Assembly (NCBI GenBank): GCA_963846335.1 | Contig: CAWJVS010000016.1 | Span: forward strand, 128,746-192,745 | Origin: an uncultured Bacteroidales bacterium | GTDB taxonomy: Bacteria; Bacteroidota; Bacteroidia; Bacteroidales; VadinHA17 | Length of the DNA stretch: 64,000 nucleotides | Direction: 5' to 3' | In this document: piece by piece, positions 47,807 through 57,018 of the stretch | Layout: each line of letters begins with the position of its first letter | How positions within the stretch are numbered: position 1 is the stretch's first letter | Position numbers and translations under genes: made by a program | The notes under the pieces: generated by a model | What the model saw: only the letters and a program-made list of their open reading frames with translations | Database searches by the model: none | Told to the model about the DNA's origin: nothing

Positions 47807-48430
47807 ATGAAACTACCGGGAAAAACAGTTGAAAGGCTCAGCGAATACAGAAGGACACTTCTGGAATGCCTGAACGAAAAAAGAAACTTTATTTTTTCAC
47901 ATGATCTTGCTGCCCGTCTTCACATTACTGCTGTTCAGGTAAGGCGTGACCTTATGCTGATCGGCTATTCGAGTGTTCTCAGAAAAGGTTATGATGTGAG
48001 AGAACTTATTGATACAATTGGAAAAATTATTGACTCTGAAGAGAGCGTAAATGTTGCCGTTATTGGTATCGGTAACCTTGGAAGGGCAGTTGCCGGATAT
48101 TTTAAGGGGAAAAGGTCGAAACTTAACCTGGTGGCTTCATTTGACACTGATCCGCAGAAGGTTAATAAAGTTATTTCAGGAGTGAAATGCTATCCTTACA
48201 GTGAGATAGAAAGAATAATCAGGGAACTGGATATCAGGATAGCAATTCTGACTGTGCCGCCCGATTATGCAGTGGAGATAGCTGAAGAAGCAGTTCGTTT
48301 CGGCATAAAAGGGATCCTCAATTTTACAACAATTCCATTGAATGTACCCTCAGGTGTCTATCTTGAAGAGTATGATATGATCACCTCCATTGAGAAAGTG
48401 GCATATTTTGTTAAAGAGAACAAGATTTAG
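47807..48430 (+). CDS. rex: Redox-sensing transcriptional repressor Rex
   Basis: TVERLSEYRRTLLECL..., winged-helix SHDLAARLHITAVQVRRDLMLIGY, and Rossmann VAVIGIGNLGRAV. Confidence 0.9.
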   Translation: MKLPGKTVERLSEYRRTLLECLNEKRNFIFSHDLAARLHITAVQVRRDLMLIGYSSVLRKGYDVRELIDTIGKIIDSEESVNVAVIGIGNLGRAVAGYFKGKRSKLNLVASFDTDPQKVNKVISGVKCYPYSEIERIIRELDIRIAILTVPPDYAVEIAEEAVRFGIKGILNFTTIPLNVPSGVYLEEYDMITSIEKVAYFVKENKI

Positions 48431-48445
48431 GGATCTTCCCGGGAC

Positions 48446-49371
48446 ATGAATATTTTCCGAAGCTTTGAAGAAGCAAAGAATATCAGGAATCCTGTAGTAA
48501 CCACCGGTTCATTCGACGGGGTTCATATCGGTCATAAGACCATTCTTGACCGCCTTAAGATCCTGGCTGAGAAGTACAGCGGAGAGTCAGTGCTGATCAC
48601 TTTTGATCCTCATCCAAGAAAAGTACTTTATCCGGAGTCAGCCGGCAAAGATCTTAAACTAATTAATTCTCAGGAGGAAAAGCTTAAGCTTCTTGAAAAA
48701 GCAGGTTTGAACAATGTCATTATAATGGAATTCACCAGGGAATTTTCAAAGATTACAAGTGAAGAGTTTGTGCAGGGATATCCTGCATGGAATACTTCAT
48801 GCCAGAGTGGTTGTAGCCGGTTTCAACCATCATTTTGGTTTCAACAAGGAGGGAGATTACAAACAGCTCTGGGGATGGCAGGAGAAATATAATTTTGAGG
48901 CGGAAGAGATACCTGAACAGGAGGTTCAGCATGAAACTGTCAGTTCAACAAAAATCCGCAAGGCAATAAGTGAGGGATATATTCAGAGGGCAAATGCCTA
49001 CCTTGATCATTATTATATTATTATGGGTAACTGCTGAAAAGTATCATTGTTTCTGATAGTGAAACTCTTCCTGGTTTCCTGAAGAATTTCTACTGACGGA
49101 AGAATGTAAGCTTCTTCCGTCACCAGGAATTTATGCAGTTTCAGTGGAAGCAGGGTCCGGCTATTCAAAAGGCATGGTTGTAATCAACCATGGAGCTGAC
49201 AATCATTTCTGATGTCCTCATCAGATATTTGATAACCTGAACCTTCCACCTGACCAGAAAATTTGCAGCTTTTTTCATAAGAAAATCCATGGAGCAGTCA
49301 ATCTTTCCGACAGTAATTCAATCCGGAAGATCGACCAGGCAAAAGAGGAGATACTTGATCTTATTTACTAG
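48446..49371 (+). pseudogene. ribF: Bifunctional riboflavin kinase/FMN adenylyltransferase, at least three frameshifts as assembled; kinase half is poorly conserved
   Basis: N-terminus VVTTGSFDGVHIGHKTIL...VLITFDPHPRKV. Second frame VVAGFNHHFGFNKEGDY...VSSTKIRKAISEGYIQRANAYLDHYYIIMG. Downstream fragments KLLPSPGIYAVSVEAGSGYSKGMVV and HQIFDN...FFHKKIHGAVNLSDSNSIRKIDQAKEEILDLIY*. Confidence 0.65.
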
Positions 49372-49400
49372 GATATTTCATGGTAGATGACTAAAGTTTG

Positions 49401-49408: not shown

Positions 49409-49475
49409 CAGCCTGAGTGCTGAATCTGATTTTGAACATTTATTAACTCAGCCAGTTGTCATTTTGCCTCACCCC

Positions 49476-49570
49476 AACCCCTCTCCCCGGGGAGAGGGGC
49501 AAAACCCGTATCATCGCTTACCCCTTCTCCCCCGGGAGAAGGGGGCAGGGGGATGAGGCGGATTGAAAGC
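49476..49570. repeat. GC-rich double-palindrome element in the hydG leader region
   Basis: Perfect 22-bp palindrome CCCCTCTCCCCGGGGAGAGGGG (49488..49509). Second palindrome CCCCTTCTCCC-CC-GGGAGAAGGGG (49531..49554). Outer arms GCCTCACCCC / GGGGATGAGGC. Confidence 0.85.
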
Positions 49571-49613: not shown

Positions 49614-51038
49614 ATGAAGTTTTCTCCTGAAAAACTAAGTATTCCTGATCAACGAATGAAGCCATTCATTGATCCTGAAGAGATATGGAATCTTATTAAC
49701 AATACCAAACCGGATAAACATAGAGTCAGGGATGTAATTGCAAAATCACTTGAAAAGCAAAGACTTACACTTGAAGAAACTGCGGTCCTTGTAAATTCAG
49801 TCGGAACCGACCTGGCTGACGAGATAAAAGACGGGGCCCGCGAGCTGAAACAGAAAGTTTATGGAAACCGGATAGTTCTTTTTGCTCCTCTCTATGTTGG
49901 AAACAGGTGTACCAATAATTGCAAATATTGCGGTTTCAGGGCATCAAATGCCGATGCAATAAGAAAAACTCTTGATGATAATGAAATTATCAGGGAGGTT
50001 GAAGCTCTGGAGGATAACGGACAGAAGAGGCTTATCCTTGTCTATGGTGAGCATCCCGACTATTCACCTGAATATATTGCTCATACGGTAAAGCTTGTTT
50101 ACGGGGTAAAGAAGGGACATGGTGAGATACGAAGAGTAAATATAAATGCTGCTCCGCTTGATATTGAAGGTTTCAGAAAAGTCGGAGAATCAGGTATAGG
50201 TACTTACCAGATATTTCAGGAGACTTATCATCCTGAAGCATATAAATGGTATCATCTTGGAGGTAAAAAGAGAGATTATGAATGGCGCCTTACATCACTC
50301 GACAGGGCACAGGAGGCCGGTATTGATGATGTTGGTATCGGAGCTCTGTTCGGCCTTTACGACTGGAGGTTTGAGGTGCTCGGACTGGTCCGTCATACTA
50401 ACCATCTTGAGGCCTGCTATAATGTTGGTCCGCATACTATTTCCTTTCCGCGCATAAAGGATGCACTGAGCCTGAACCTTGACAAGAAATATGAGACCAG
50501 TGATGACGATTTTAAAAAGCTGGTTGCCATACTAAGACTTGCTGTTCCATATACCGGATTGATACTTACTGCACGGGAGGCTCCTGAAGTCAGAAGGGAA
50601 GTGCTTCAGTACGGTGTATCACAGATTGATGGAGGTACAAAACTTGAGCTGGGTTCATATTCAGATTCGAGGAATGAGGAACAGAACCTGAACCGGGAAC
50701 AGTTTAAAATAAATGATGCCAGATCCCTTGCAGAAGTTATTGATGAACTGCTTACAAATGATTACCTTCCTTCATTCTGCACATCATGTTACAGAATGGG
50801 GCGTACAGGTGAACATTTTATGGAATTTTCAGTGCCCGGGTTTATAAAGAGGTTCTGTACTCCCAATGCAATACTCACTCTTTCAGAATATATATGTGAT
50901 TATGCCCAGGGAGAAACAGTTGAGAAAGGCTGGAAAGTAATTGAAAAAAATATTGAAAAACTGGAATCATCAGTAGCAGCCGGCACCAGGGAGAAAATTG
51001 ACAGAATCAGGGCAGGGGAGAGGGATCTGTATTTTTAA
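49614..51038 (+). CDS. hydG: [FeFe]-hydrogenase H-cluster radical SAM maturase HydG (tyrosine lyase)
   Basis: CTNNCKYCGF radical SAM motif and the C-terminal auxiliary-cluster motif CTSCYRMGRTGEHFMEFSVPGFIKRFC (Cx2Cx22C). 474 aa. Confidence 0.9.
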   Translation: MKFSPEKLSIPDQRMKPFIDPEEIWNLINNTKPDKHRVRDVIAKSLEKQRLTLEETAVLVNSVGTDLADEIKDGARELKQKVYGNRIVLFAPLYVGNRCTNNCKYCGFRASNADAIRKTLDDNEIIREVEALEDNGQKRLILVYGEHPDYSPEYIAHTVKLVYGVKKGHGEIRRVNINAAPLDIEGFRKVGESGIGTYQIFQETYHPEAYKWYHLGGKKRDYEWRLTSLDRAQEAGIDDVGIGALFGLYDWRFEVLGLVRHTNHLEACYNVGPHTISFPRIKDALSLNLDKKYETSDDDFKKLVAILRLAVPYTGLILTAREAPEVRREVLQYGVSQIDGGTKLELGSYSDSRNEEQNLNREQFKINDARSLAEVIDELLTNDYLPSFCTSCYRMGRTGEHFMEFSVPGFIKRFCTPNAILTLSEYICDYAQGETVEKGWKVIEKNIEKLESSVAAGTREKIDRIRAGERDLYF

Positions 51039-51353: not shown

Positions 51354-51878
51354 ATGATAAAAGTTCTCGGAATAAAAATAATCGACAGGATAAAGGAAGC
51401 AGGTCTTACCCAGGGGATTTTATCGAGGCATGCAAATGTCATCACAACCCGGCTTGGGTTCCACGAAGTTACTGATGAAGTCTGCAGCCGTGAGGCTTAT
51501 ATTATACTTCATCTGAATGGCGATCCTGCTGATTCTGAAAAACTCAGTAGTGAACTTGAAGAGCTTGGCGGGGTTGAGATTAGGGAAATGACTTTTAATA
51601 CTGAGAAGGAATTACTCAACTCTGAATCAGAAATGACTTCTGTCGAAATTCTCGGCATCATGGTTGAAAGGAATCAGGAGGTAATCGGTGCAGTTCAGAA
51701 AATTCTTACGGCTTATGGCTGTAATATCCGCACACGCCTGGGAGTCAATGAGGTATTCTTCGGAGAACCTGCAGGCCTGATCATCCTGGAGTTAAAGGGC
51801 GACTCCAGGCAAAGGCTGTTGCTCGAAAAGGATCTCAAGTCACTCAACCAGGTTCATGTCAGGACCATGGTTTTCTAA
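51354..51878 (+). CDS. Tandem-duplicated TM1266-like (ACT/NikR-C-like) putative iron-only hydrogenase system regulator
   Basis: Two internally similar halves of about 80 aa (IKVLGIKIIDR...RLGFHEV...IILHLNGD...GVEIREMTF and VEILGIMVERN...RLGVNEV...IILELKGD...VHVRTMVF). It lies next to hydG. The family assignment is from memory of the single-domain TM1266 family. Confidence 0.6.
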   Translation: MIKVLGIKIIDRIKEAGLTQGILSRHANVITTRLGFHEVTDEVCSREAYIILHLNGDPADSEKLSSELEELGGVEIREMTFNTEKELLNSESEMTSVEILGIMVERNQEVIGAVQKILTAYGCNIRTRLGVNEVFFGEPAGLIILELKGDSRQRLLLEKDLKSLNQVHVRTMVF

Positions 51879-51887
51879 TTAATATAA

Positions 51888-51970
51888 GTTGCTGGGTGCT
51901 GGGTGCTGGCTCATTTAATCTCCAACCGAGCACCCACCGCACCAAGCACCAAGCACCAGCCAGCACCCGG
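51888..51970. terminator. Imperfect inverted repeat of GCTGGGTGCTGG-type words between convergent genes
   Basis: GCTGGGTGCTGGGTGCTGGC ... GCACCAAGCACCAGCCAGCACCC. It uses the same word family as the 7407..7553 microsatellite and lies between the ends of the TM1266-like and lyase genes. Confidence 0.4.
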
Positions 51971-53437
51971 CTAAAGGCTATCCCCGAAATCTGCCCTGAA
52001 TTTTGCCATTAGTTTTTCCGGCCATGGACTTGTTGCATCGAGTCGTCCTGTGAAAAACCTGAGTACGGGAGGCTCTTCAACAAACCTTAGGCCTCCTACA
52101 AGATCCTTATTATGAAACAGCCAGTTCAGTCTGTCAATTAAATACTCAACCTGTGAAAGGGTAAATACCCGACGCGGGAATGCAAGCCTCATAAGCTCAA
52201 GCTCGGCGTATATATCATTTCCATTTTCATCACGTATGCTGCTGAGTGTTCCCCGTTCCATTCCGCGTATCCCCGATATTAAATAGAATGCAGCAACCAG
52301 AGCGCCTGCAGGATATTCGCTTTGTGGTATATGCGGTAAAAATGTCTGTGCTTCAACATGGCATCCAAGTGCTCCGCCTGGCATTATTACAGGTAATCCA
52401 AGCTTGTCGAGTTCCTGCACGGCATAGTCTATGAATGAAGGAGACTGTCCGACAACATCTTCCACCAGTGTTTCATATAAACCGACTGTCATTGCTTCGA
52501 TTTCACGGATCGAAATACCTCCATATGTAAGAAATCCTTCATAGAGTGGCACCAGGTCTTTCATTTTATTATAAAGATCCTTGTTATTTGTGCAGATTGC
52601 GCCTCCACGTGATGAACTTACCTTGCGTCCTGAAAAATAGACAATGTCCGACAGGTTGCACATCTCGTTCAGGATGGCTCCTATTGTTGAATCGGCATAT
52701 TCCTTTTCTCTTTTCTTTATGAAGTATGCATTTTCTCCGATAAGGCTGGCATCCATTACAATTATTATTTTGTGCTTGTCAGCCACTTTTCTCACTTCCT
52801 TAAGGTTTTCCATTGAGAATGGCTGTCCTCCGATCAGGTTGGTAGAGGCTTCCATTCTTATGAAAGGAACATTTCCAGCTCCGTTTTTAACTATCAGTTC
52901 TTCAAGTCTTGCAATGTCAATATTTCCCTTGAAAGGATTAGTACTCTTGATCATCATCGCTTCGGGAGTATAGAGTTCCACAACTGCCCCTCCGTTTAGC
53001 TGGATATGAGCCAGTGTTGTTGTAAAATGGTAGTTCATCGGGACGACAGATCCTTTTTTAACAAAGATCTGCGAGAGGATATTCTCAGCTGCCCGTCCCT
53101 GGTGAACAGGCAGTACCAGGTTCTTCCCGAAAACATCAGCAACACTCTTCTGAAATTTAACAAAGCTCTGCGAACCGGCGTAAGCATCATCAGCAACGAA
53201 CATTTTCGAAAGCTGTTCATCACTCATGGCATTGGTTCCGCTGTCTGTGAGCATATCCAGAAAAATATCCTTTGTTCCTAGTAGAAATGTATTGAATCCT
53301 GCCTCCCTTATTGCCTCAAGACGCCGTTCAACCGGTACGAGTTTGAGTGATTGAACAATACGTACCTTATGCATCTCAAGAGGTATCTCTTTTCCATTGA
53401 AAAATTTTACTGTTCCTGCTTTTTTAGTTTTTTCCAT
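51971..53437 (-). CDS. Divergent beta-eliminating lyase family protein (tryptophanase / tyrosine phenol-lyase-like, PLP-dependent)
   Basis: Colinear with TnaA/TPL: FLLGTKDIFLDMLTDSGTNAMSD, DDAYAGS, VHQGRAAEN, NYHFTTT, NLIGGQPFSM, ENAYFIKKRE, SGRK, YGGISIREIEAM, GIRGMERG, FPRRVFT, LRFFTGRL. The start is placed at MEKTKKAG (53437). The track start 53482 would run through the terminator hairpin. Confidence 0.8.
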   Translation of the reverse strand: MEKTKKAGTVKFFNGKEIPLEMHKVRIVQSLKLVPVERRLEAIREAGFNTFLLGTKDIFLDMLTDSGTNAMSDEQLSKMFVADDAYAGSQSFVKFQKSVADVFGKNLVLPVHQGRAAENILSQIFVKKGSVVPMNYHFTTTLAHIQLNGGAVVELYTPEAMMIKSTNPFKGNIDIARLEELIVKNGAGNVPFIRMEASTNLIGGQPFSMENLKEVRKVADKHKIIIVMDASLIGENAYFIKKREKEYADSTIGAILNEMCNLSDIVYFSGRKVSSSRGGAICTNNKDLYNKMKDLVPLYEGFLTYGGISIREIEAMTVGLYETLVEDVVGQSPSFIDYAVQELDKLGLPVIMPGGALGCHVEAQTFLPHIPQSEYPAGALVAAFYLISGIRGMERGTLSSIRDENGNDIYAELELMRLAFPRRVFTLSQVEYLIDRLNWLFHNKDLVGGLRFVEEPPVLRFFTGRLDATSPWPEKLMAKFRADFGDSL

Positions 53438-53463
53438 GATTCCTGTCAGTTGGTTTAAAATGT

Positions 53464-53497
53464 ATAAAAAAAAGCTTACCACCTGTTTGGTAAGCCT
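53464..53497 (-). terminator. Intrinsic terminator/attenuator hairpin 27 nt upstream of the lyase start codon
   Basis: Minus strand reads (G)GCTTACC-AAACAGGT-GGTAAGC followed by TTTTTTTT. Confidence 0.6.
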
Positions 53498-53545
53498 CGT
53501 ATTTTGTACTTTGTTGTCAGCATCAAATTATCCAGGACTTACATT

Positions 53546-53602
53546 TCATCCTGAATAACAGAAATGGTAATAAATACCAATATTTAATTTTAATATACCC
53601 AT
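53546..53602 (-). CDS. Candidate 18-codon leader peptide MGILKLNIGIYYHFCYSG
   Basis: ATG at 53602 and TGA at 53548..53546, with three Tyr, one Phe and one His in the last 8 codons. It lies between a promoter-like element and the terminator hairpin. GTAAGTC (53542..53536) can pair with the 5-prime terminator arm GGCTTAC (53496..53490). Confidence 0.35.
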   Translation of the reverse strand: MGILKLNIGIYYHFCYSG

Positions 53603-53619
53603 TGGTTAACGTCTGCCTT

Positions 53620-53650
53620 CAAACCTAGCTTTTTTTTATTGATTTTCAAA
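53620..53650 (-). promoter_or_regulatory. Candidate Bacteroidota promoter TTTG-N19-TAGGTTTG for the leader/lyase transcript
   Basis: Plus-strand CAAACCTA (53620..53627) equals TAGGTTTG on the minus strand. CAAA at 53647..53650 equals TTTG, and the spacing is 19 nt. Confidence 0.35.
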
Positions 53651-53683: not shown

Positions 53684-54784
53684 TCATTTTTTGGGTAAGC
53701 GTGCTCTCCTGTCACTGTAATGCTTTGAATCGCCCCATTCACCATACACTACTTCAGCATCAGCAAGGCTTACCCTGGCTTCCAGGCAGCTCTGGCAATC
53801 CTCCGCAGAATCGTCTGTACAGGGTTTGTTATCATATAGTTTATAGCTGTCACGGTATTTTCCGGGAGTAATATTCGGCATCAGGATATTTGCGCCTATT
53901 CTGACAGCTTTTTCCCTGCCCAGCGGATCAATGGCCTGAAGGGCTGTTGCAGCAACGATATTGATATCTTTCATCATTATCCTGATTATTGCGATCATTT
54001 TAAGAGTGAGATCAAATCTCTCATTCAAGGGCATAAGGTTACCCTCATGGCTTATCAGAGGTGTATCTGCATGTTCAATATATGGACCCATACCGCACAT
54101 ATCAATGTCAAATTCCTTCATAAAAAGGAGGTCACCCGCCAGGTCATCCATGGTCTGAAAAGGCAGTCCTATCATTACTCCGGTACCAGTCTGATAGCCT
54201 ATTTCCTGCAGGCTTTTCAGACATTCGAGTCTTCGGTTGAAGCTGTGTTTTGAATCTGCAGGATGTATCTTCCCGTACAGATCCGGATTTGTTGCTTCAA
54301 CACGCAGCAGGTACCGGTGTGCACCTGCCTCAAACCATCTTCTGTAGACCTCCGGATCCTGTTCGCCGACCGACAGTGTTACTCCCAGTTCCCCGTTTGA
54401 CATCTCCCTGATCATGCGGAGAAGGTTCTCTATCCTGCCGGTTGCAATATTGCTTTCAAGCTCTCCTGATTGCAGTGCTATTGAGCCATACCTGTTCGTA
54501 TATGCAAATTTTGCAGCAGCAAGAATTTCATCATCGTCCAGGTTGTACCTCACCAGGTTTTTATTGCCCTTCCTGATGCCGCAATAAAGGCAATCTTTTC
54601 CGCAGACATTTGAAAACTCGATTAATCCCCTGAACCATACTTTGTTACCTATAAATTTCTCTTTTGTATCAGCAGATTTTTTAAAGAGAAGTGTCCGGTC
54701 CTCTCCTTCACAAGTCAGAAGCTCAATGATATCAGCCCGTGATAATTCGTCCTTATTCAGAATATCTTTAACTGTACTCTCCAT
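53684..54784 (-). CDS. hydE: [FeFe]-hydrogenase H-cluster radical SAM maturase HydE
   Basis: CGKDCLYCGIRKGN radical SAM motif in a biotin-synthase-like fold. 366 aa, located in the hyd maturation neighbourhood. Confidence 0.85.
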   Translation of the reverse strand: MESTVKDILNKDELSRADIIELLTCEGEDRTLLFKKSADTKEKFIGNKVWFRGLIEFSNVCGKDCLYCGIRKGNKNLVRYNLDDDEILAAAKFAYTNRYGSIALQSGELESNIATGRIENLLRMIREMSNGELGVTLSVGEQDPEVYRRWFEAGAHRYLLRVEATNPDLYGKIHPADSKHSFNRRLECLKSLQEIGYQTGTGVMIGLPFQTMDDLAGDLLFMKEFDIDMCGMGPYIEHADTPLISHEGNLMPLNERFDLTLKMIAIIRIMMKDINIVAATALQAIDPLGREKAVRIGANILMPNITPGKYRDSYKLYDNKPCTDDSAEDCQSCLEARVSLADAEVVYGEWGDSKHYSDRRARLPKK

Positions 54785-54960
54785 TCATGTTTTGTTGGCA
54801 TGTAAAGATAATAAAAGGGGTATCTCTTTCCACATCACCTGTCAGAAGTCATGTTTTGTGCTTTATATTTTTATTATCTTGCTGATACAAATAAGGACCA
54901 TCTGCAGTTTTTAAGTTGTTATATATCACTGAGTTCATTGCTGCACAGTTACTGTATATC

Positions 54961-57018
54961 ATGATAAATGAAAAGCTGATAAATCCGGAAAGCATAGTTG
55001 TAGTCGGAGGATCGGATGATCTGTTAAAACCGGGAGGTAAAGTTCTGAAAAACATTATCGACGGAAATTTTCAGGGTGATCTTTATGTCGTAAATCCAAA
55101 ACAGGATCATGTTCAGGGAGTAAAATCATATAAGGACATTCATGATATTCCTCAGGTTGATCTTGCAATACTGGCTATTCAGGCTAAATTATGTCTGACG
55201 GCAGTTGAAGTCCTTTTACACGAGAAAAATACAAGGGCATTTATTATTATCTCAGCAGGTTTCAGTGAATCAGGGGAGGAAGGCAAAAAGCTTGAAAAGG
55301 AGATATCAGATATGATTGGCAAGGCTGGAGGGTGTCTGATCGGACCTAATTGCATTGGAGTTATAACACAGGACATACAGCGGTGTATTTACATCACCTG
55401 TCCCAAAACTTGATGAACGGGGATGTGATTTTGTTTCGGGATCAGGGGCAACTGCAGTCTTTATTTTTGAATCTGCAATGCCAAAGGGGCTTAATTTTTC
55501 AAGTGTCTATTCAGTTGGAAACAGTGCCCAGACAGGTGTTGAGGAGGTTCTCGAGTACTGGGATAATACCTTTGATCCGTCAGTAAGTTCACCGATAAAG
55601 CTTATTTATGTTGAGAGTATCCGTAATCCTGATAAACTGTTGCATCATGCATCCTCTCTTATAAGGAAGGGATGCAGGATTGCAGCAATAAAAGCCGGAA
55701 CTACTGAGGCCGGAAGCAGAGCTGCCTCTTCTCATACCGGTGCAATGGCATCATCCGACCTGGCGGTGGAAGCGCTATTCCGAAAAGCCGGAATTGTAAG
55801 GTGTTCCGGTCGTGAGGAGCTCACTACAGTGGCATCTGTCTTTTTTCATAAACAGCTGAAAGGGAAAAATATAGCAATCATAACTCATGCAGGCGGACCT
55901 GCAGTGATGCTTACCGATGCGCTCTCTGCAGGGGGGATGAATATTCCCAGGATTACCGGCGCTCATCACGATAGATTGCTTTCGATGATGAATCCCGGAG
56001 CATCGGCTGATAATCCGATCGACCTGATTGCCACGGCTACAAATGATCAGCTTGATAAGGTAATAGAATATGTTGACAAGGAACTTCCTCTTATTGATGG
56101 TATGAGTGTTATTTTCGGCAATAACGGGCTGAATGACATGATGAGATTTATGATCTTCTGCATAAGAAGATCACGGAGTGCAATAAGCCTCTTTATCCTA
56201 TACTTCCTTCAATAACAAGCTCATCAAAAGAGCTGGAGAATTTTCTCAACAAGGGACATGTTAATTTCCCTGATGAAGTTGTTCTTGGAAGGGCACTTAC
56301 AAAAATTTTCAATACTCCTTCTCCTGCCGAGGAAAAGATCTTTCTCGAGAATGTAGATGTGTCGCGTGTAAGGCAGATAATTGAAAATGCTCCTGATGGT
56401 TATCTGGAACCTGCAGTTATTCAGCAGCTTCTTGATGCAGCAAATATCCCTGTGGTGAAGGAAGATGTAGTGGCATCCAAGAGAGACCTCCTGTCGGTGG
56501 CAAAAAAGACAGGATATCCTCTGGCCTTAAAGGTTGTAGGACCTGTTCATAAATCGGATGTAGGAGGTGTTACCCTGAATATAAAATCGGAAAAACATCT
56601 TGAAGCTGAGTTCAACAGGATGATGAAGATTAAAGGTGTTAAAGCTGTTCTTGTACAGCAAATGCTGTCAGGTACGGAGCTTTTTATCGGTGCAAAATAT
56701 GAACCAAGATTCGGACATGTTATCCTTTGCGGACTTGGAGGAATATTTGTGGAAGTACTGGGAGATGTGTCATCAGGACTTGCACCTCTCACTTTCAATG
56801 AAGCAGAATCGATGATCAGGAGCATTAAAAGTTACAGGATTATTACTGGAACCAGAGGCAGACCAGGAATTAATGAGGCTAAATTTGCTGAAATAATTGT
56901 CAGGCTTTCCAGCTTGCTGCGGTATGCAACTGAAATAAAGGAGATGGATCTTAATCCGTTAATCGGAAGTCCGGAAGGCATAACAGTGGTTGATGCAAGG
57001 ATAAGAATTGAAAAATGA
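54961..57018 (+). pseudogene. ADP-forming acyl-/acetyl-CoA synthetase (fused CoA-binding, CoA-ligase and ATP-grasp domains), two frameshifts (about 55370 and 56145) as assembled
   Basis: PESIVVVGGSDD...GPNCIGVIT, then TYSGVFTSPVPKLDERGCDFVSGSGATAV..., then EIYDLLHKKITECNKPLYPILPS... and the ATP-grasp LALKVVGPVHKSDVGGV...EMDLNPL. Confidence 0.8.

Follow-up and report, generated by a model that had tools for sequence, protein, structure and literature searches.

Why a gene of the tryptophanase/tyrosine phenol-lyase (TPL) family lies between hydE and hydG, two maturase genes of the [FeFe]-hydrogenase, and how this gene is controlled are the questions raised by a 64,000-nucleotide (nt) stretch of DNA from an uncultured Bacteroidales bacterium of the lineage VadinHA17 (assembly GCA_963846335.1, contig CAWJVS010000016.1, positions 128,746 to 192,745). 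The complete stretch is referred to as the window. A previous reading, made from the letters of the window alone, had regarded the lyase as a tyrosine-responsive accessory enzyme of H-cluster maturation preceded by a ribosome-mediated attenuator. We consider it probable that the lyase gene is an independent unit with an attenuator that reads tyrosine (Tyr) codons, that the enzyme most likely works in the tyrosine-forming direction and that its position at the hyd genes is a matter of synteny. Coordinates of leader and lyase elements refer to the minus strand throughout.

The spacer between the stop codon of hydE (53684) and the ATG of the lyase gene (53437) was read directly on the minus strand and is 246 nt long. 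The sequence-only reading had described a promoter pair, an open reading frame (ORF) of 18 codons, a GTAAGTC motif and a hairpin with T8 in this spacer, all of which were found at the positions given for them. The predicted promoter of the leader transcript (53620..53650) is of the Bacteroidetes type, with a -33 TTTG at 53650-53647, a 19-nt spacer and the -7 box TAGGTTTG at 53627-53620. The leader ORF (53546..53602) consists of 18 codons and a TGA stop, encodes MGILKLNIGIYYHFCYSG and has its Tyr-codon stretch at 53572-53555. GTAAGTC is located at 53542-53536, 3 nt past the leader stop codon.

Three pairing elements can be assigned to this leader. Hairpin 1:2 (53527..53559) has the 5' arm GUUAUUCAGGAU (53559-53548), which shares nucleotides with the final Tyr codon and with the stop codon, and the 3' arm GUCCUGGAUAAU (53538-53527); segment 2 lies within its loop and 3' arm. 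This segment 2 (53534..53542, GUAAGUCCU) is the antiterminator strand and is able to pair with the 5' arm of the terminator. The intrinsic terminator, segments 3:4 (53466..53498), reads GAGGCUUACCA, a 6-nt loop and UGGUAAGCUUU, followed by U8. In the DNA, its stem GAGGCTTACCA / 6-nt loop / TGGTAAGCTTT occupies 53498-53471 as an 11-bp hairpin, with T8 at 53473-53466. It was also recovered by a terminator scan, and its folding energy is -14.3 kcal/mol. The distance from the T-run to the lyase start is 28 nt, and the hairpin is found 186 nt past the hydE stop codon, with the promoter box in between.

The leader RNA of the window folds with -36.8 kcal/mol (z = -4.4), a stability that was reached by none of 200 shuffled sequences. 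Seven terminator-like sites were observed in the window compared to 5.5 expected, so that a single hairpin is no better than chance. An Rfam search with the window spacer yielded no match at threshold, the best being Phe_leader (RF01859) with 21.5 bits and E = 0.35. A second promoter between the T-run and the lyase ATG (TAcaTTTt in the window) was considered and rejected, since it is not conserved in relatives.

Relatives of the lyase were collected by scans of species-representative genomes and metagenomes, which yielded 160 loci with 59-90% identity. Exact-protein look-ups added a further 16 loci, resulting in about 176 loci that encode the subfamily. A close Bacteroidales clade was defined by a lyase identity of at least 73%, and the spacer is clearly homologous within it. 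The 15 distinct leaders of this clade share the promoter box, a short ORF with 3-7 Tyr codons, the terminator and a predicted competing antiterminator pairing. A TAnnTTTG box is present about 20 nt 5' of the leader ATG in 12/12 aligned leaders, the peptides are of the type MGI(I/L)KLNIGIYYYYYY, and both the GGTAAG-N-CC segment and the GGCTTACC...GGTAAGC hairpin with its T-run are kept. The closest relative (L167, with a lyase 94% identical) has the leader peptide MGILKLNISIYYYFYYSG, while most other clade leaders contain 5-7 Tyr codons and thus stronger runs than the window. By this comparison, the window leader appears as a slightly eroded copy.

The variable sites of the leader ORF are distributed over the codon positions as 6/9/14. 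Third positions vary most, indicating a translated frame. In L087 and L005 the N-terminal part of the peptide differs and the Tyr run is retained. The stop codon of every leader lies in or after segments 1-2, yet before segment 3. None of the clade leaders has a TAnnTTTG box between the T-run and the lyase ATG, which suggests that the lyase depends on read-through. In L005 and L088/L089, leader, terminator and lyase are present without hydE upstream, hence the leader belongs to the lyase rather than to hydE. At the level of sequence, these comparisons establish the anatomy of the leader and its conservation.

When the free leader was folded, the minimum free energy (MFE) structure contained a 1:2 helix of 12 bp, in which the end of the Tyr run and CAGG are paired with CCTG-GATAAT, and the 3:4 terminator was formed as well. 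Hairpins equivalent to 1:2 were recognised by eye in most relatives, some of them with other sequences (CAGGU/ACCUG, UAGG/CCUA, CAUGAUUC/GAACAUG and AGCUUAC/GUAAGU). A stalled ribosome was represented by masking the Tyr run plus 10 nt and omitting segment 4 as untranscribed, followed by MFE folding. Under these settings, GGTAAG-CC of segment 2 pairs with GG-CTTACC of segment 3 in 12/12 leaders tested. Pair counts and RNAalifold were applied to a MAFFT alignment of the 15 clade leaders; 93% of cells are paired in the terminator, which is also the RNAalifold consensus, and 87% in the antiterminator. A matching change (GGCAG/CUUGCC) was seen by eye in L088.

The proposal of an attenuator of the trp/phe type is supported by these results, as box, ORF, Tyr run, terminator and the predicted alternative pairing are all kept in relatives. 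From the geometry of the spacer we infer that stalling would result in read-through and completion in termination, which is backed by the T-boxes on orthologues described below. In this mechanism, the hydE-lyase spacer would act as a separate transcription unit with its own Bacteroidetes-type promoter. If charged tRNA-Tyr is plentiful, the ribosome would pass the Tyr codons and reach the stop codon, and segment 2 would be covered or re-paired with segment 1. With segment 2 occupied, the GGCUUACC/GGUAAGC hairpin and its U-run would form and end transcription those 28 nt before the lyase start. If charged tRNA-Tyr is scarce, the ribosome would stall on the Tyr codons and hold segment 1, segment 2 (GUAAG-CCU) would pair with the nascent 5' arm of the terminator, and RNA polymerase would read into the lyase gene.

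Sensors of tRNA-Tyr were also found in front of lyase orthologues of other lineages. A Rikenellaceae metagenome-assembled genome (L148), its relative L175 and Odoribacter (L176) each have two short ORFs with Tyr runs in tandem. The tandem leader peptides are MTFSTSYAYLYYYFGRSKRG and MILNTVYYGYYYYC... in L148 and MNTMYTSYYYFYYYFSEK and MTITNLSHTGRYYYYYYYN... in L176, and they have only the Tyr run in common with the clade leaders. A separate hairpin with a T-run follows each of the tandem ORFs, and the stems are unlike one another and unlike that of the window. An alternative antiterminator pairing is predicted in both L148 leaders. Compared to L148, L175 contains an additional hairpin-rich element of about 290 nt between the two leaders (L175:1060-1345).

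In three loci of Bacillota (L076; L161, Natronospora cellulosivora; L164, Sporanaerobacter type), a T-box (RF00230) is located directly 5' of the orthologue without an intervening gene. Their scores of 154, 125 and 124 bits are above the Rfam gathering threshold of 93, and the specifier loop GAA(A)-UAC-A of all three presents a tyrosine codon. The sign of a T-box is unambiguous, and uncharged tRNA-Tyr thus switches the lyase gene on. Across the 172 loci (1.6 Mb) surveyed for background, Tyr-run short ORFs occur 5' of the lyase in 21/172 loci and essentially nowhere else. Runs of at least four Tyr codons in short ORFs were found 18 times in the 1.6 Mb, and 14 of these are lyase leaders. Since orthologues of other lineages use other tRNA-Tyr sensors, the earlier claim of a tyrosine-responsive lyase gene is supported, with expression predicted to be on when tRNA-Tyr is uncharged.

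Some features of these leaders and loci were recorded in addition. Cys codons (TGT/TGC) often break the Tyr runs (YYCYYC, YYCCYYY, YYYYC), and the Tyr codons of the clade leaders and of L148/L175/L176 are TAT in 54 and TAC in 16 cases; both the interruptions and the bias may reflect the simple mutational neighbourhood or have regulatory meaning. In Alistipes, L030:5760-6000 contains an apparently decayed Tyr leader (KLHYYYY without a start codon), which appears further eroded in L029:3550-3790. On the 3' side of both remnants, a strong hairpin with a T-run precedes a fresh TAnnTTTG box, which lies 5' of the lyase. In Odoribacter, a gene for a bifunctional 3-deoxy-D-arabino-heptulosonate 7-phosphate (DAHP) synthase/chorismate mutase (L176:3365-4447, plus strand) lies 3' of the lyase on the same strand after a gap of 413 nt, so that a gene of aromatic amino-acid biosynthesis adjoins the lyase there. 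When looked for at the other loci, a DAHP synthase neighbour was found in L176 only. The genes downstream of the lyase in L175 are hisG and hisD.

The lyase gene (51971..53437) encodes a 488-aa pyridoxal 5'-phosphate (PLP) enzyme, which matches Pfam Beta_elim_lyase and the broad NCBIfam 'tryptophanase' subfamily PRK13238 (582 bits). The score obtained with the TPL equivalog TIGR02618 is 448 bits, which is below the cut-off of 720.7 bits. The same is true for the tryptophanase (TnaA) equivalogs TIGR02617 (362 vs 825.8 bits) and NF053783 (383 vs 750 bits). Identities within the subfamily range from 58-66% between phyla, compared to about 40% over the full length to the TPL of Citrobacter freundii. 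All lyases under tRNA-Tyr sensors fall within this same tight subfamily. It comprises thousands of sequences, including the gut genera Odoribacter, Butyricimonas, Alistipes and Akkermansia, and its members are named 'tryptophanase' or 'tyrosine phenol-lyase' in databases.

The 81 proteins first examined were aligned to C. freundii TPL, the sequence of which was rebuilt from an alignment and used for numbering. Phe36, Thr49, Tyr71, Arg100, Phe123, Thr124, Asn185, Asp214, Ser254, Lys257, Tyr291, Met379, Glu380, Arg381, Arg404, Phe448 and Phe449 are invariant in 81/81 proteins; we take these to be residues of catalysis and of the pocket that makes TPL specific for tyrosine. The motifs DDAYAGS, HQGR, NAYFIK, SGRK, MERG and DASL noted previously are all present. 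Among them, DASL was correctly recognised as a change of a conserved Arg to Leu (Arg217->Leu in 81/81 proteins). The replacement of LDARRF by VEAQTF had been regarded as a reason to doubt the substrate. This doubt was misplaced, as tyrosine is bound by Arg381, which belongs to the retained motif S-M-E-R-G and is invariant in the subfamily. At the positions that discriminate TnaA from TPL (TPL Thr124, Arg381 and Phe448), the subfamily has Thr, Arg and Phe as in TPL; the residues of TnaA there are presumably Asp, Ile and His. The label 'tryptophanase' is thus unlikely to be right.

Four changes are invariant in the 81 proteins and mark a distinct TPL-like subfamily, namely Arg217->Leu, Lys256->Arg, Glu69->Asp and Met288->Phe. 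The first two correspond to Leu232 and Arg271 of the window protein. In TPL, Arg217 is presumably the partner of the PLP O3' and Glu69 part of the cation site. The loop past the PLP lysine is one residue shorter than in C. freundii TPL, and conserved extensions are present at both termini. The C-terminal extension of about 20 residues (468-488; window 51971-52030, minus strand) contains invariant Trp472, Leu476, Phe480, Asp483, Phe484 and Ser487, and the N-terminal extension an invariant Phe12. A change of Asn262 to Arg was seen in one alignment, could not be reproduced in another and was dropped.

A gene that is switched on by tyrosine shortage and encodes an enzyme with an intact TPL pocket points most likely to the tyrosine-forming direction. 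The lyase would then be an enzyme of tyrosine salvage or synthesis that catalyses the reverse TPL reaction, and tyrosine might be formed from phenol, pyruvate and ammonia, or from phenol and serine by beta-replacement. A precedent is known from the Bacillus cereus group, in which a Tyr T-box controls Phe-4-hydroxylase, a side-route enzyme for tyrosine formation, as well as a tyrosine biosynthesis operon (PMC2494555). The likeness lies in uncharged tRNA-Tyr acting on a side-route enzyme, and the difference in that Bacteroidales would implement the same logic by a ribosome-mediated attenuator. TPL-like enzymes are not among the T-box targets in the census of that study (PMC2494555).

Several observations weigh against this interpretation. 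With no more than three Tyr codons, the leader of the window is weak when taken alone, for which reason its significance is taken from the conservation in relatives. Among these, the leader is decayed in the close relatives L004, L027, L081/L168 and L169/L170. About 85% of the sampled loci have no visible tRNA-Tyr sensor, and other regulators, such as AraC and PucR, are found near some orthologues. The pair count for the 1:2 helix is non-significant, and the MAFFT alignment does not bring this helix into register. A comparison of orthologous spacers, suggested in the sequence-only reading, confirmed that ORF, Tyr codons and terminator are conserved along with the predicted antiterminator pairing, but it yielded zero double-sided compensatory changes in terminator and antiterminator of the 15 clade leaders, both by pair counts and by RNAalifold. 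Because of the sequence conservation of the helices, covariation can speak neither for nor against them, and the argument rests on an architecture that recurs in lineages whose helices are unrelated. At equilibrium, the terminator fold is in every case more stable, so the antiterminator must act kinetically, as in classical attenuators. With regard to the enzyme, the invariant Arg217->Leu and Lys256->Arg changes could alter the chemistry, the direction of the reaction is deduced from regulation alone, and the proposed reaction would need a supply of phenol.

The function favoured by the sequence-only reading, an accessory role in H-cluster maturation by supply of substrate such as tyrosine, supply of ammonia or salvage of a by-product for HydG or HydE, would account for the place of the lyase beside the maturase genes and has to be weighed against the distribution of the genes. 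The identities of the neighbours were upheld: hydE (53684..54784, minus strand) matches TIGR03956 with 347 bits and hydG (49614-51038, plus strand) matches TIGR03955 with 487 bits. The former is the upstream neighbour of the lyase and lies outside the regulatory unit. A fused CPF_0552/TM1266-like gene 3' of hydG (51354-51878, plus strand) encodes a putative regulator of the hydrogenase system. The lyase is located directly 3' of hydE in at least 18 clade loci with 73-94% lyase identity, and a tyrosine-forming enzyme beside hydG would make metabolic sense, since HydG uses tyrosine. However, this clade is the only one among the roughly 176 subfamily loci in which hydE adjoins the lyase, and neither hydE nor hydG was found in the flanks of about 150 loci outside it. 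Even within the clade, hydG is often non-adjacent where hydE adjoins, and several members have no hyd genes at the locus. In L169/L170 the lyase is still flanked on opposite sides by acetate-CoA ligase and by ribF-Rex-histidine kinase, the outer genes of the window locus, but hydE, hydG and the TM1266-like gene are absent. L004 has kept no more of hydE than a remnant of its 3'-end, and L005 and L088 keep leader and lyase without hydE. In addition, the lyase has its own predicted promoter and a terminator that insulates it from hydE. The subfamily also occurs in Akkermansia and in aerobic Bacillaceae (Bacillus tuaregi, Niallia, Savagea), which to our knowledge have no [FeFe]-hydrogenase maturases. 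A census of neighbours at 160 loci revealed none common across the subfamily, the top clusters resulting from many near-identical Akkermansia loci. Literature searches yielded no paper joining these enzymes to HydE or HydG, and nothing on T-box control of TPL or a physiological reverse TPL reaction. We hold a role in H-cluster maturation to be improbable and regard its place among the hyd genes as synteny specific to this lineage; in the hydE clade, some local advantage, e.g. tyrosine for HydG, is conceivable but unsupported.

An ordinary catabolic TPL or tryptophanase, preceded by a Tyr-run ORF with another role or none, would agree with the database names, with the retained TPL pocket and with the AraC- and PucR-type regulators, which are often found near catabolic genes. 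It is unlikely nonetheless, because the scores are below both sets of equivalog cut-offs, the positions for Trp specificity hold TPL-type residues, and a T-box as well as a starvation-type attenuator have the wrong sign for tyrosine degradation. Akkermansia muciniphila was not among the phenol producers in a culture screen (PMC6424909), a weak point that would count only if the strain carries the lyase gene. Regarding the spacer itself, the hairpin could be the terminator of hydE and the small ORF a chance product of AT-rich DNA, where short ORFs rich in Y, I, F and L are common; the hairpin does lie downstream of hydE, and one such site is not above chance. This seems very improbable, given that 15 leaders share ORF, frame, Tyr run and promoter box, that most changes fall on third codon positions, and that these features persist without hydE (L005, L088). 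Moreover, the hairpin follows the promoter box at a considerable distance from the hydE stop codon and directly precedes the lyase, with no promoter box between. Scarcely credible is a functional Tyr-rich small protein, or a precursor modified by the neighbouring radical S-adenosylmethionine (SAM) enzyme, although the peptide gene adjoins a radical-SAM gene and its N-terminal MGIIKLNIGI is conserved in the clade. That neighbour is a clear HydE equivalog, L087, L005, L148 and L176 retain the Tyr run alone, C-termini and stop positions vary freely, and the peptide is also found without any radical-SAM neighbour.

A Tyr-codon attenuator in front of an independent lyase gene can be compared with known systems. 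It resembles the trpL, pheL, hisL, leuL and thrL attenuators in that it has a dedicated promoter, a short ORF in which codons for the controlling amino acid are clustered, predicted 1:2, 2:3 and 3:4 pairings that exclude one another and an intrinsic terminator just 5' of the gene, with read-through predicted upon stalling. It differs from them by its Tyr codons, the Bacteroidales TAnnTTTG promoter, the control of a single lyase-family gene rather than a biosynthetic operon, and the tandem arrangement in Rikenellaceae and Odoribacter. We know of no described Tyr leader, and Rfam contains no Tyr leader family. The mechanism itself is classical; what is new is tyrosine as the amino acid that is read, the tandem arrangement in some lineages and a target from a family regarded as catabolic.

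In the tnaC-tnaA system of Escherichia coli, a short leader ORF likewise precedes a gene for an enzyme of the same family, and the ribosome on the leader decides on the continuation of transcription. TnaC senses free tryptophan by nascent-peptide arrest at a single Trp codon, which blocks Rho-dependent termination and leads to induction when tryptophan is abundant. In contrast, the lyase leader has a Tyr run and an intrinsic terminator and is predicted to have the opposite sign, and only the Tyr run is conserved between lineages. The enterobacterial TPL gene is activated by tyrosine through TyrR. Lys257, Tyr71, Arg100, Asn185, Asp214, Arg404 and the tyrosine pocket of C. freundii TPL (PDB 2ez1; TIGR02618) are kept, whereas Leu217, Arg256, Asp69, Phe288, the shorter loop, the extensions and the predicted regulation by tyrosine shortage set the subfamily apart from that enzyme.

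It is conceivable, and put forward here tentatively, that the subfamily is a physiological tyrosine synthase that under tyrosine shortage converts environmental phenol, pyruvate and ammonia (or serine) to tyrosine. The Arg217->Leu, Lys256->Arg and Glu69->Asp changes would then be adaptations that tune the enzyme for synthesis, and in the hydE clade it may also buffer the tyrosine drawn by HydG. If true, phenol would be consumed by a salvage route that has so far gone unrecognised, whereas TPL is regarded solely as a phenol producer. The occurrence of two unrelated kinds of RNA sensor for tRNA-Tyr charging, found in two phyla, argues for tyrosine supply and against tyrosine degradation, and it provides a cross-phylum functional clue and a testable re-annotation for a very large subfamily labelled TPL or tryptophanase. 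The production of indole and phenol, precursors of uremic toxins, is predicted from gut metagenomes with the help of such labels, and these predictions would be biased if the subfamily consumes phenol or does not release it. The leader adds a class of Tyr-codon attenuators in Bacteroidales, in which attenuation is little studied, and the list of H-cluster maturation factors loses a tempting but unsupported candidate.

The surroundings of the locus show further features. A gene for the redox-sensing repressor Rex (47807-48430, plus strand) is located two genes upstream of hydG, and Rex adjoins the locus even in relatives without hyd genes (L004, L169). Between them, ribF (48446-49400, plus strand) looks broken, with a 148-aa FAD_syn ORF at 48446-48892 followed by about 500 nt of RibF-like sequence in other frames, while the counterpart in L169 is an intact RibF of 306 aa. 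This is either a pseudogene or the result of assembly indel errors. A YYY stretch at 49016-49024, considered as a second target of a Tyr leader in the window, was rejected because it lies inside this frameshifted remnant and is no leader. The ADP-forming acetate-CoA ligase gene (54916-56215, plus strand) is interrupted and comprises two or more ORFs (165 aa and 245 aa), compared to one gene of more than 687 aa in L169, and again points to frameshifts or assembly indels in the window. Such errors may also be behind the eroded Tyr run of the window leader (YYHFCY vs YYYFYY in L167).

Inverted repeats were observed at two sites. The G+C-rich repeats CCCCTCTCCCCGGGGAGAGGGG and CCCCTTCTCCCCCGGGAGAAGGGGG are found just 5' of hydG (49470-49560, plus strand), in a spacer that is AT-rich apart from them. 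A long imperfect inverted repeat, GGTGCTGGCTGGTGCTTGGTGCTTGGTGC ... GCCAGCACCCAGCACCCAGC, at 51885-51968 separates the convergent lyase and TM1266-like genes and may serve as a bidirectional terminator.

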